Source: a virus (Duplodnaviria; Caudoviricetes). Taken from it: 64,000 bases of DNA. The notes beneath the pieces are model-generated. The model did not search any database, was not told where the DNA came from, and was given only the letters and a program-made list of their open reading frames with translations. The stretch spans positions 37,233 to 101,232 of IMG/VR virus record IMGVR_UViG_3300028591_000134. One strand, 5' to 3'. The position numbers and the translations under genes are program-made. This document shows, one piece after another, positions 32,572 to 33,864 of this stretch. Position 1 is the first letter of the stretch. Each line of letters begins with the position of its first letter.

Positions 32572-32722
32572 TACACAGGCACTTAGGTAGCCTGTACACC
32601 GACTTTACGCTGCCTCCTTGAGGCCCGTATAGTCTGCAATGTTCATATTGCCGTTTATAAATATCAAAGCGCTTGTCTTATGACTGTCTTACTTTCCACT
32701 GCTGTCAAATCCAGTCAGGCCC
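32572..32722 (-). ncRNA. ssrA: tmRNA coding piece (permuted two-piece tmRNA); tag GNMNIADYTGLKEAA*
   Basis: 5' GGGCCTGACTGGATTTGACAG; ATAAAC-GGC resume context; tag ORF 32652-32605 ends in AA. The 3' boundary is approximate. Confidence 0.85.
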
Positions 32723-32932
32723 AATATTAAACCAAGTCCGTTCTCTTCTTTCCCTAAGTCTAAACGATGGCTAATGTCACCAAAATTCCATTAATAGGGT
32801 TACCCGGTTGCTGTTTATTCTACCAACTTATTTGAACAATTATCCGCATCGAATGCCTTGGATTACTCCAAGTAACGGCTGCGCCTGTAATACTTGGTTT
32901 ATGATTTTGTGGACCTGGAGGGCTAAGTTATA

Positions 32933-32961
32933 TGCAACCATATTGCTCCACACATCCGTTA
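32933..32961 (+). promoter_or_regulatory. TGCAAC-N18-CGTTA promoter for the antisense HNH gene
   Basis: TGCAAC-CATATTGCTCCACACATC-CGTTA, 14 nt before ATG 32976. Confidence 0.7.
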
Positions 32962-32975
32962 TTAAAATAAAAACT

Positions 32976-33473
32976 ATGTTAATAGAAGTTATTTGTAAAG
33001 AATGCGGTAAAGCATTTATGGCTGATTCTCGTGAGATAAACCGAGGACATGCGCAATTTTGTAGTATTTCGTGTGCCATTAAGTACAGAAACAAGACAAA
33101 TCCATATCATAAACACATATGTGTTCAATGTGGTAAAGAATTTGAAAGTAAAAGTACAAAAGTTAAATACTGCTGTAAGAGTTGTAAATATAAATATTAC
33201 AGATCTCTTATGAAAACAGAATTAAATGGCACTAAAAAATTACAGGACATTCTTAAAGAATTACCTTGTGAAAATTGCGGATGGAACATAGGACCACGAG
33301 ACGTTCATCATATAATTCCCGTCTCGGAAGGCGGAAAGAATGAGTTTGACAATCTCATTACACTATGCCCAAATTGTCATCGACTTGCTCATAGAAACCT
33401 TCTTTCGAAGGACAAGTTGATTGCACTTGTTAACTTACGGACTATCTCATCATCTTATGACATTGCTGCATAA
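32976..33473 (+). CDS. HNH endonuclease with zinc-ribbon repeats, antisense to its host intron
   Basis: CKECG..FCSISC, CVQCG..YCCKSC, CENCG..DVHHIIPVSEGGKNEFDNLITLCPNCH. Confidence 0.9.
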   Translation: MLIEVICKECGKAFMADSREINRGHAQFCSISCAIKYRNKTNPYHKHICVQCGKEFESKSTKVKYCCKSCKYKYYRSLMKTELNGTKKLQDILKELPCENCGWNIGPRDVHHIIPVSEGGKNEFDNLITLCPNCHRLAHRNLLSKDKLIALVNLRTISSSYDIAA

Positions 33474-33864
33474 GAGTTGGGCGCTCGAGCTGGTAATTAA
33501 GAGAACTATATCTCTCCAGTAGTCTCTGCACTTTTCGAGAGTGTACTCTCGACTTAGCTCAGGATTAGCATGCACAATGTTAGTTTTGAGCTATTATTAT
33601 GTTTAGCTTTCCCTGAATTCACCCAATTTTGTCATATACATTACTGTATAAGCGAACCCTATGATTCGAACCCTCGTCCAACAGCTTATTCTGGGACACG
33701 CTAAGATTGTGAGCAAGTGTGGGAGCGACCCACAAATGCCCTAGGAAGCATTCTAAGGCGTTCTGAGGCGTTTTATCTACCTGGTGTGGGTAGCTAATCC
33801 ACAAAAAGTTTTAATGCGCTTCGGAGGCCTTAAAATGCGTTGTATGTTGTGCACGGTGATATGA

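Follow-up and report, generated by a model that had tools for sequence, protein, structure and literature searches.

A probable two-piece tmRNA gene interrupted by a group I intron in the T-loop in a phage genome

We describe a gene for transfer-messenger RNA (tmRNA), which releases stalled ribosomes, in a 64,000-nucleotide (nt) stretch of DNA from a crAss-like gut phage, referred to below as the window (positions 37,233 to 101,232 of IMG/VR record IMGVR_UViG_3300028591_000134; Duplodnaviria, Caudoviricetes). The gene lies on the minus strand and all its coordinates are positions in the window. It is very likely a genuine phage gene for a two-piece tmRNA, of which the acceptor piece is split by a mobile group I intron after nucleotide 7 of the T-loop and of which the RNA would mature and tag proteins as proposed below. 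The sequence data show the gene anatomy, the homology to related phages, the covariation, the family and boundaries of the intron and the lack of a phage SmpB gene; splicing, cleavage, charging and tagging in vivo, as well as a benefit for the phage, are inferred.

The combination of permuted and intron-containing tmRNA forms in this locus and its relatives causes gene finders to miss the gene. ARAGORN reported only tRNAs in the raw window, and Rfam reported no tmRNA. When position 33664 was joined to position 32922 in silico and ARAGORN was rerun, a permuted tmRNA with the tag GNMNIADYTGLKEAA* was obtained. The spliced junction gives GAGGGTTCGAATCCCTCCAGGTCCA exactly, as in at least eight intron-less relatives, and after splicing the T-arm and acceptor have the same letters throughout as the uninterrupted pieces of relatives such as L034, L008 and L048. 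Since the junction matches intron-less relatives and covariation supports every helix, the gene is not a chance resemblance.

Gene anatomy, relatives and covariation

The locus reads, on the minus strand, acceptor-piece 5′ exon, 741-nt insertion, 3′ exon, 187-nt spacer and coding piece. The 5′ exon terminates in ...GCTGTTGGACGAGGGTTCGAAT at 33664; in parts this end is ...AAUCUUAGCGUGUCCCAGAAUAAGCUGUUGGAC-GAGGG-UUCGAAU. The 3′ exon consists of the T-stem 3′ strand CCCTC, the acceptor 3′ strand CAGGTCC and the discriminator A at 32910. A CCA end is not encoded after it, the next letters being ACAA. The coding piece begins with GGGCCTGACTGGATTTGACAGC at 32722, in which the acceptor 5′ strand GGGCCUG is followed by a D-loop analogue, ACUGGAUUUGAC. 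It continues with the partner strands of helices P2a, P2b and P2c, a GUC-AUAA-GAC hairpin, an A/U-rich linker, the tag frame and the P5 hairpin. P2c is situated about ten A/U-rich nt ahead of the resume codon.

The two acceptor strands, GGGCCUG (32722-32716) and CAGGUCC (32917-32911), pair at all seven positions and include a G3.U70 pair. Together with the discriminator A this gives the features of alanine identity, by which the RNA is predicted to be charged. The T-arm GAGGG-UUCGAAU-CCCUC is complete only once the intron is removed, with a predicted exon junction ...GGGUUCGAAU/CCCUCC..., and the mature RNA is predicted to consist of pieces of about 60 and 150 nt. A hairpin lies just 5′ of the base-paired part of the acceptor piece, and one of two hairpin types holds this place in the aligned relatives. 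The hairpin could be a leader or could form the 5′ terminus of the acceptor piece.

Most of this anatomy had been proposed in a first-pass annotation made from the letters alone. A check of the sequence found all its elements at the minus-strand positions given there. The permuted two-piece gene with a T-loop group I intron was borne out by ARAGORN after splicing, by homologues that pass the permuted-tmRNA model RF04321, by covariation and by the Rfam intron match, and the tag returned by ARAGORN for the spliced sequence is the one it had written. The 7-bp acceptor stem with G3.U70 likewise stands, while the spacer (estimated at 185 nt) and the coding piece (150 nt) measured 187 and about 151 nt. 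Two details needed revision. Helix P2a exists, but the comparative data favor the register GCUGUU/AGCAGU, one step from the proposed GACAGC/GCTGTT, and the acceptor piece extends in the 5′ direction to at least 33707, beyond what the annotated end coordinate implied for its paired part.

Relatives were collected as crAss-like Suoliviridae loci from IMG/VR, metagenomes and RefSeq, and rumen or faeces appears in several of the record names. A blastn comparison with phage records led to crAss-like phages. Scans with a pattern for the C-terminal half of the tag gave 13 IMG/VR loci and 49 metagenome loci, so that the search of other crAss-like phages suggested in the first-pass annotation produced about 60 related loci with the same gene. 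Of 64 related extracts, 50 gave a permuted tmRNA in ARAGORN, and many intron-less relatives scored 49-68 bits against RF04321 (tmRNA_permuted; threshold 47). The closest empty, intron-less site is that of L034. The RefSeq genomes cr273_1 and cr272_1 (Suoliviridae, Buhlduvirus) have an annotated tmRNA at the homologous place, read by ARAGORN as permuted and intron-less with the tag GNINVVDYTGLQEAA*. Three other relatives (L042, L047 and L054) have the T-loop GGCAGUA instead of UUCGAAU, with T-stem and acceptor intact; they were missed by ARAGORN, and two of the three scored 57-66 bits with RF04321.

Thirty-seven intron-less relatives were aligned in natural gene order under a nested two-piece structure (alignment A1) comprising the acceptor stem, the T-stem, the intermolecular helices P2a, P2b and P2c and the hairpin after the stop codon. 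In this alignment 95.9% of the cells were paired and changes on both sides occurred in 26 of the 36 pairs. None of 500 shuffled controls reached any of the measures, and slid controls were 33-47% paired. The acceptor stem, with four covarying pairs, and the T-stem were both 100% paired, and G3.U70 was present in 37/37 relatives. The exons of the window fit every helix of A1. Co-folding of the two pieces with RNAcofold recovered the intermolecular acceptor stem, P2c, the T-arm and P5, and missed P2a and P2b.

The tag frame runs from the resume codon GGC to a TAA, not TAG, stop codon. Its product ends in ...KEAA, whereas the sampled tmRNAs of Bacteroidota end in ...ALAA. The open frame is retained in about 60 relatives. 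It is also open, of similar length and with DYT kept, in cr118_1 and cr4_1 (tags GNNVNFFDYTLKVA and GNTSYVMDYTRLAA), two genomes that were reached via the intron and not via the tag, and the conservation of the frame therefore holds independently of the search pattern. Codons 1-6 form a hairpin that includes the resume codon and was 99.5% paired over the 37 relatives, with two covarying pairs (A-U/G-C and U-A/C-G); as a consequence tag residues 2, 5 and 6 vary partly for RNA reasons. The tag pattern had no matches in 185,579 GTDB species genomes (one per species), which gives no sign of a bacterial source with the phage tag.

The group I intron and neighboring RNA genes

The insertion matches the Rfam group I intron model RF00028 from 33673 to 33427, beginning in the T-arm, over the full model (1-253) with 65.9 bits against a threshold of 50. 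Comparison with the T-arm of the intron-less relatives, which is intact, defines its boundaries. In helix P1 the exon sequence CGAAU (33668-33664) pairs with the guide GUUCG (33657-33653), which places the pair U33664.G33657 at the 5′ splice site, and the last base of the intron is G32923.

In the window, L015, cr118_1 and cr4_1 the intron follows T-loop nucleotide 7; in L003, L006 and L010 it follows nucleotide 1. The RefSeq genomes cr118_1 and cr4_1 belong to other subfamilies. Their T-loop is UUCGACU, and the guide GGUCG matches the changed exon (CGACU/GGUCG). Their acceptor stems also pair, as GGGGCUG/CAGCUCC and GGGGCAU/AUGCUCC, respectively. The tmRNA is unannotated in both cr118_1 (L066, NC_055872, about 1490-2420) and cr4_1 (L067, NC_055893, about 1490-2490), the records of which annotate only the antisense open reading frame (ORF) described below, as a hypothetical protein. 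At the other subsite the guides match the T-stem (GAGGGU/GCUCUC in L003 and GCGGU/GCCGC in L006). Between the two subsites the ribozyme cores share 78-83% identity across roughly 155-190 nt. This covariation of guide and exon in seven genomes suggests that the introns are, or recently were, competent for splicing.

On the opposite strand to tmRNA and ribozyme, the intron contains an ORF for an HNH homing endonuclease (PF01844, 54.9 bits, cut-off 21.4, residues 98-140; phrog_1271, HNH endonuclease), the 3′ end of which overlaps the P9 region of the ribozyme. The same antisense 165-residue ORF is also present in L015, cr118_1 and cr4_1. The cargo differs by subsite, a 165-residue HNH protein versus an endonuclease VII/HNH-like protein of 209-212 residues, both antisense to the ribozyme. 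A pairing between the P9 loop, UGCAAUCA (33425-33418), and UGGUUGCA (32940-32933, near the 3′ splice site) is present in the window; because it has no counterpart in cr118_1 we do not claim it. The intron of L015 is the same and at the same site, and carries an extra insertion. Inside the peripheral region of its ribozyme (extract positions 870-1060) is an ORF of about 55-60 codons (MKIENVGQLKYLLKDLNDD...), and a similar ORF occurs in the tmRNA spacer of L042 (extract about 1450-1630). This small ORF may be a small mobile cassette.

Table 1. Features of the tmRNA locus in the window
Feature	Position	Strand	Size	Basis or remark
Upstream hairpin GGGCAT-TTGTGGGTCGCTCCCACA-CTTGCTC	33711..33740	-		From sequence; adjoins paired part of acceptor piece
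Acceptor-piece 5′ exon	33664..33707	-		Sequence; covariation of P2a, P2b, P2c and T-stem
P2c strand	33707-33699	-		In 5′ exon
P2b strand	33698-33695	-		In 5′ exon
P2a strand	33685-33680	-		In 5′ exon; then GGAC
T-stem 5′ strand GAGGG	33675-33671	-		
Whole T-loop TTCGAAT	33670-33664	-		
Group I intron	32923..33663	-	741 nt	Rfam RF00028; T-arm of relatives
Ribozyme core	33663-33427	-		
HNH homing-endonuclease ORF	32976..33473	+	165 amino acids	Inside intron, opposite strand to tmRNA and ribozyme
Acceptor-piece 3′ exon CCCTCCAGGTCCA	32922-32910	-		Sequence; relatives
Spacer between pieces	32723..32909	-	187 nt	By position
Coding piece	32572..32722	-	about 151 nt	ARAGORN on spliced sequence; alignments; covariation
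Tag frame GGC...TAA, encodes GNMNIADYTGLKEAA*	32605..32652	-		ARAGORN; relatives
Tag-codon hairpin GCAAU...AUUGC, including resume codon	32637-32652	-	5 bp	Alignment A1, columns 309-324
P5 hairpin, 3′ of stop codon	32596-32574	-		
tRNA-like mini-helix, directly 3′ of coding piece	32516..32571	-		Rfam tRNA-Sec partial match, 26 bits
tRNA-Leu(UAA)	31701-32511	-		Split between U34 and A35 by group I intron

The spacer between the pieces ranges from 16 to 752 nt in relatives, with unconserved sequence. The longest, that of L034, holds a 216-residue sense ORF between the tmRNA pieces (4307-4957, minus strand) with a weak radical-SAM/4Fe-4S-like match (Pfam Fer4_12, E 0.006; phrog_31524). About 90-120 nt upstream of the acceptor piece a conserved motif (G)TGGATTAGCTACCCA was observed, in the window at about 33778-33800 (minus strand), in L001 at about 2237-2256 and at equivalent places in L006, L016 and L003. 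This motif could be a promoter or operator.

The mini-helix that follows the coding piece lacks both a D arm and an anticodon arm; it consists of an acceptor stem of 7-8 bp, a single short hairpin and a canonical T-arm. In most relatives the coding piece is immediately followed by a tRNA or a tRNA-like element, 44-85 nt long. In the majority of cases the acceptor of this element is AGUGAGU/ACUCACU(-CC) and its T-stem covaries; in some genomes a true tRNA-Gln(UUG) or tRNA-Met takes the position of the mini-helix. The element likely acts as RNase P/Z punctuation that would set the 3′ end of the coding piece. A closing helix, in which GUGAG from the 5′ strand of the mini-tRNA would pair with the YUCAC located 5′ of P2c in the acceptor piece, showed no covariation. 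It was rejected because YUCAC persists even in genomes where a true tRNA-Gln, whose acceptor stem differs, comes next.

Genes for tRNA-Leu(UAA) and tRNA-Lys lie downstream of the tmRNA gene. The tRNA-Leu intron (32477-31751, 727 nt, Rfam 63.3 bits) contains a sense-strand HNH ORF of 203 residues (32417-31806). ARAGORN detected this tRNA only with the intron option or after in-silico splicing, and its acceptor stem has two U-U mismatches. No significant similarity was found between the two introns of the window. The presence of the second intron shows the phage RNA-gene cluster to be a target for group I introns.

The IMG/VR record from which the window was taken is 101,232 bp long and complete according to CheckV. 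No SmpB gene (PF01668) was found in this 101-kb phage genome, so the host protein would be needed. Long plus-strand ORFs require TAG to be read as sense: those at 1-5607 and 5598-11933 (1868 and 2111 codons) hold 30 and 45 in-frame TAGs, and those at 46972-49017 and 61859-63946 hold 16 and 7. The minus-strand block that contains the tmRNA gene does not need TAG as sense. As the need is confined to plus-strand genes, the phage recodes TAG strand-wise, in an early/late type of pattern. No tRNA, such as a suppressor, was found near 45235 by ARAGORN with intron search.

Proposed mechanism and rival explanations

In the proposed mechanism the minus-strand transcript would comprise the whole RNA-gene cluster, with acceptor piece, spacer, coding piece, mini-tRNA, tRNA-Leu and tRNA-Lys. 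The intron would splice itself, using P1 (CGAAU/GUUCG), its U.G pair and the terminal G, and thereby restore the T-arm. The spacer is expected to be removed from the transcript by host tRNA-processing enzymes, which would also add CCA; for the coding piece, the 3′ end is probably marked by the tRNA-like element that follows it. The acceptor stem with G3.U70 and A73 would form between the 3′ terminus of the acceptor piece and the 5′ terminus of the coding piece, while P2a, P2b and P2c would provide three further intermolecular helices holding the pieces together. Host alanyl-tRNA synthetase would charge the RNA, and host SmpB and EF-Tu would bring it to stalled ribosomes. Translation would resume at GGC and append A-GNMNIADYTGLKEAA, giving tagged peptides that end in AGNMNIADYTGLKEAA.

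Several observations weigh against this reading. The unspliced window scores 13.8 bits with tmRNA_permuted in a permissive Rfam run, well under the gathering threshold of RF04321; such a low score is expected because the 741-nt intron splits the modelled T-arm. The antisense endonuclease gene puts about 500 nt of non-ribozyme sequence before the 3′ splice site. Co-folding of the two pieces brings a modest gain, -17.2 kcal/mol compared to -9.3 ± 3.3 kcal/mol for shuffled sequences (about 2.4 standard deviations). No pseudoknots emerged from the alignments, in which no dedicated pseudoknot search was run; in E. coli tmRNA, pseudoknot PK1 matters. With respect to the tag, some of the apparent amino-acid variation is RNA covariation in the hairpin. 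Furthermore, the pattern that retrieved most relatives required the C-terminal tag residues, so the synonymous-only variation at the tag C-terminus is not independent evidence.

The small size of the RNA without visible pseudoknots, the position of the resume codon inside a conserved hairpin and the lack of a phage SmpB gene would also suit a decoy, an RNA acting mainly by sequestering host SmpB, or else by competition with the tmRNA of the host, and so shutting down host trans-translation, with tagging being incidental. A precedent is mycobacteriophage DS6A, which carries little beyond the tRNA-like domain of tmRNA, and for molecules of this type inhibition of tmRNA has been reported, with titration of SmpB as a possible cause (PMC4131195). 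However, every relative examined keeps a frame of 14-15 codons with a Gly resume codon, an Ala-rich end and a stop codon, even the distant cr118_1 and cr4_1 with their different tag sequences, and the A/U-rich stretch ahead of the resume codon is similar to the one in a host tmRNA. We consider a decoy improbable. Less probable still is a dead gene, in which the intron has inactivated this copy, the ribozyme no longer splices and a decaying pseudogene is kept only by a selfish intron and its endonuclease. The 3′ splice site about 500 nt past the ribozyme core, beyond the antisense ORF, and the P9-loop pairing that is not conserved in cr118_1 could be explained in this way, but the intron matches the Rfam model over its full length and has the P1 U.G and the terminal G, and guides track exon changes in seven genomes at two subsites. 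Moreover, the exons are undegraded relative to intron-less relatives, and conservation of the coding piece equals that in genomes lacking the intron.

For the two-piece tmRNA that we favor, the role in infection is a separate issue. The first-pass annotation suggested that it rescues ribosomes that stall at UAG or read through it as a suppressor appears, marking the products with a phage tag. Its premise of a code switch holds, since plus-strand genes need TAG read as sense, though not the minus-strand block with the tmRNA gene. The TAA stop of the tag and its ...KEAA end, different from ...ALAA, fit such a role, and amber suppressors are said to raise SsrA tagging in E. coli, a result ascribed to Ueda and colleagues in 2002. 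On the other hand, the relatives may all share tmRNA and recoding by descent, and no paper in the literature library searched links recoded phages with tmRNA. A tmRNA acts on ribosomes with an empty A site and not on those facing a stop codon. We regard this role as unlikely. The benefit that we prefer, slightly more probable but still doubtful, is that the phage gains additional capacity for rescue, using a non-host tag, at a time when UAG suppression and the decay of host mRNA yield many non-stop ribosomes.

A broader reading would join these elements: the Suoliviridae would have a fourth, independent two-piece tmRNA lineage, derived from a one-piece Bacteroidota gene, without pseudoknots, punctuated by tRNA-like elements, invaded by introns and part of a stop-codon-recoding toolkit. 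In this full form we think it is rather unlikely. If true, it would mean that one ribozyme family occupies two T-loop subsites in several genera, that maturation needs self-splicing, cleavage and assembly in trans, and that the RNA clears non-stop ribosomes arising from UAG suppression with a ...KEAA/QEAA tag that host proteases treat differently from ...ALAA.

The locus would offer a compact natural system in which one small RNA undergoes three kinds of maturation. The same ribozyme core at two sites six nt apart, with re-targeted guides, makes a clean case for the spread of an intron to new sites. Members of a widespread gut and rumen phage group, with genomes in which UAG changes its meaning, would carry their own ribosome-rescue RNA, and its tag is unlike those of tmRNAs from Bacteroidota. 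A link between code switching and ribosome rescue thereby becomes testable in Bacteroidales-phage systems.

Comparison with known tmRNAs

A 2025 catalogue of 97,179 tmRNA sequences distinguishes standard, permuted and intron forms and two forms without a coding sequence, and its Table 3 has no form that is both permuted and intron-containing (PMC11915505). It reports T-loop introns in 883 tmRNA sequences from 21 phyla, at subsites 2, 3, 7 and 8, with LAGLIDADG endonuclease genes in a few tmRNA introns, and includes 79 phage sequences (PMC11915505). Two-piece tmRNAs of phages have also been reported, for Melnitz and as 53 unique two-piece calls in 18,146 phage genomes (PMC9004378). In view of these papers the background of the first-pass annotation, which named bacterial permuted tmRNAs and a T-loop intron in a Clostridium tmRNA, was slightly dated. 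Our literature search found no paper on tmRNAs of crAss-like phages.

The closest annotated genes are those of cr273_1 and cr272_1. They are homologous to the gene in the window and share its gene order, its T-arm, nearly the same tag and a tRNA-like element followed by tRNA genes, but are intron-less and have the acceptor GGGCGUG/CACGUCC, in which one compensatory pair is different. The intron-form tmRNA of bacteria, as in Clostridium botulinum (PMC11915505), resembles the window in the T-loop group I intron, the pairing of U at -1 with G in P1 and the terminal G. By the numbering of that paper, the subsites of the window and its relatives would be 8 and 2, both of which are listed there; position 8 is assigned to Saprospiraceae and position 2 mainly to Anaerolineae. 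The catalogued intron form is a one-piece tmRNA with LAGLIDADG genes, the endonuclease type that was searched for, whereas the gene of the window is permuted and phage-borne with an antisense HNH gene. For the intron in tRNA-Leu(UAA) the counterpart is that of cyanobacteria and plastids, which has the same U34/A35 site. The tRNA-Leu intron of the window differs from the tmRNA intron in the interrupted gene and in the orientation of the HNH ORF, sense instead of antisense.

Permuted tmRNAs like that of the window are known from Alphaproteobacteria, a betaproteobacterial lineage and cyanobacteria (RF01849-51, merged as RF04321) and from Melnitz-type marine phages (PMC9004378). Common to all is a tRNA-like domain made from two RNAs, for which processing of the tRNA type is expected. 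The RNA of the window is much smaller, shows no evident pseudoknots and has three helices just upstream of the tag that join the pieces. Its tRNA-like half matches the one-piece tmRNAs of Bacteroidota, unlike the other two-piece lineages.

The similarity to Bacteroidota is illustrated by the one-piece tmRNA of Segatella copri (about 397 nt). Its ends, UGACUGGAUUUGAC on the 5′ side and GGACGAGGGUUCGAUUCCCUCCAGCUCCA on the 3′ side, are nearly the same as in the phage, and it has a similar A/U-rich context before the GGC resume codon. Unlike the phage gene it is not permuted, intron-less and about twice as long, with the tag GENNYALAA. The 5′ tRNA-like motif GGGNNTGAYTGGNTTNGACRGC occurred almost only in Bacteroidota among the best 80 of 120 matches, and ARAGORN reported one-piece tmRNAs in most of 57 loci with this motif, with tags such as GENNYALAA. 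By its sequence, the phage gene thus looks Bacteroidota-derived. Such a source would imply an origin of the permutation separate from the alphaproteobacterial, betaproteobacterial and cyanobacterial lineages, as judged from similarity and not from a tree. Two-piece phage tmRNAs, T-loop introns and tmRNA annotations in crAss-like phages are each already known; what is new is the combination of permutation and intron, the apparent Bacteroidota-derived origin and a very small fold without evident pseudoknots.

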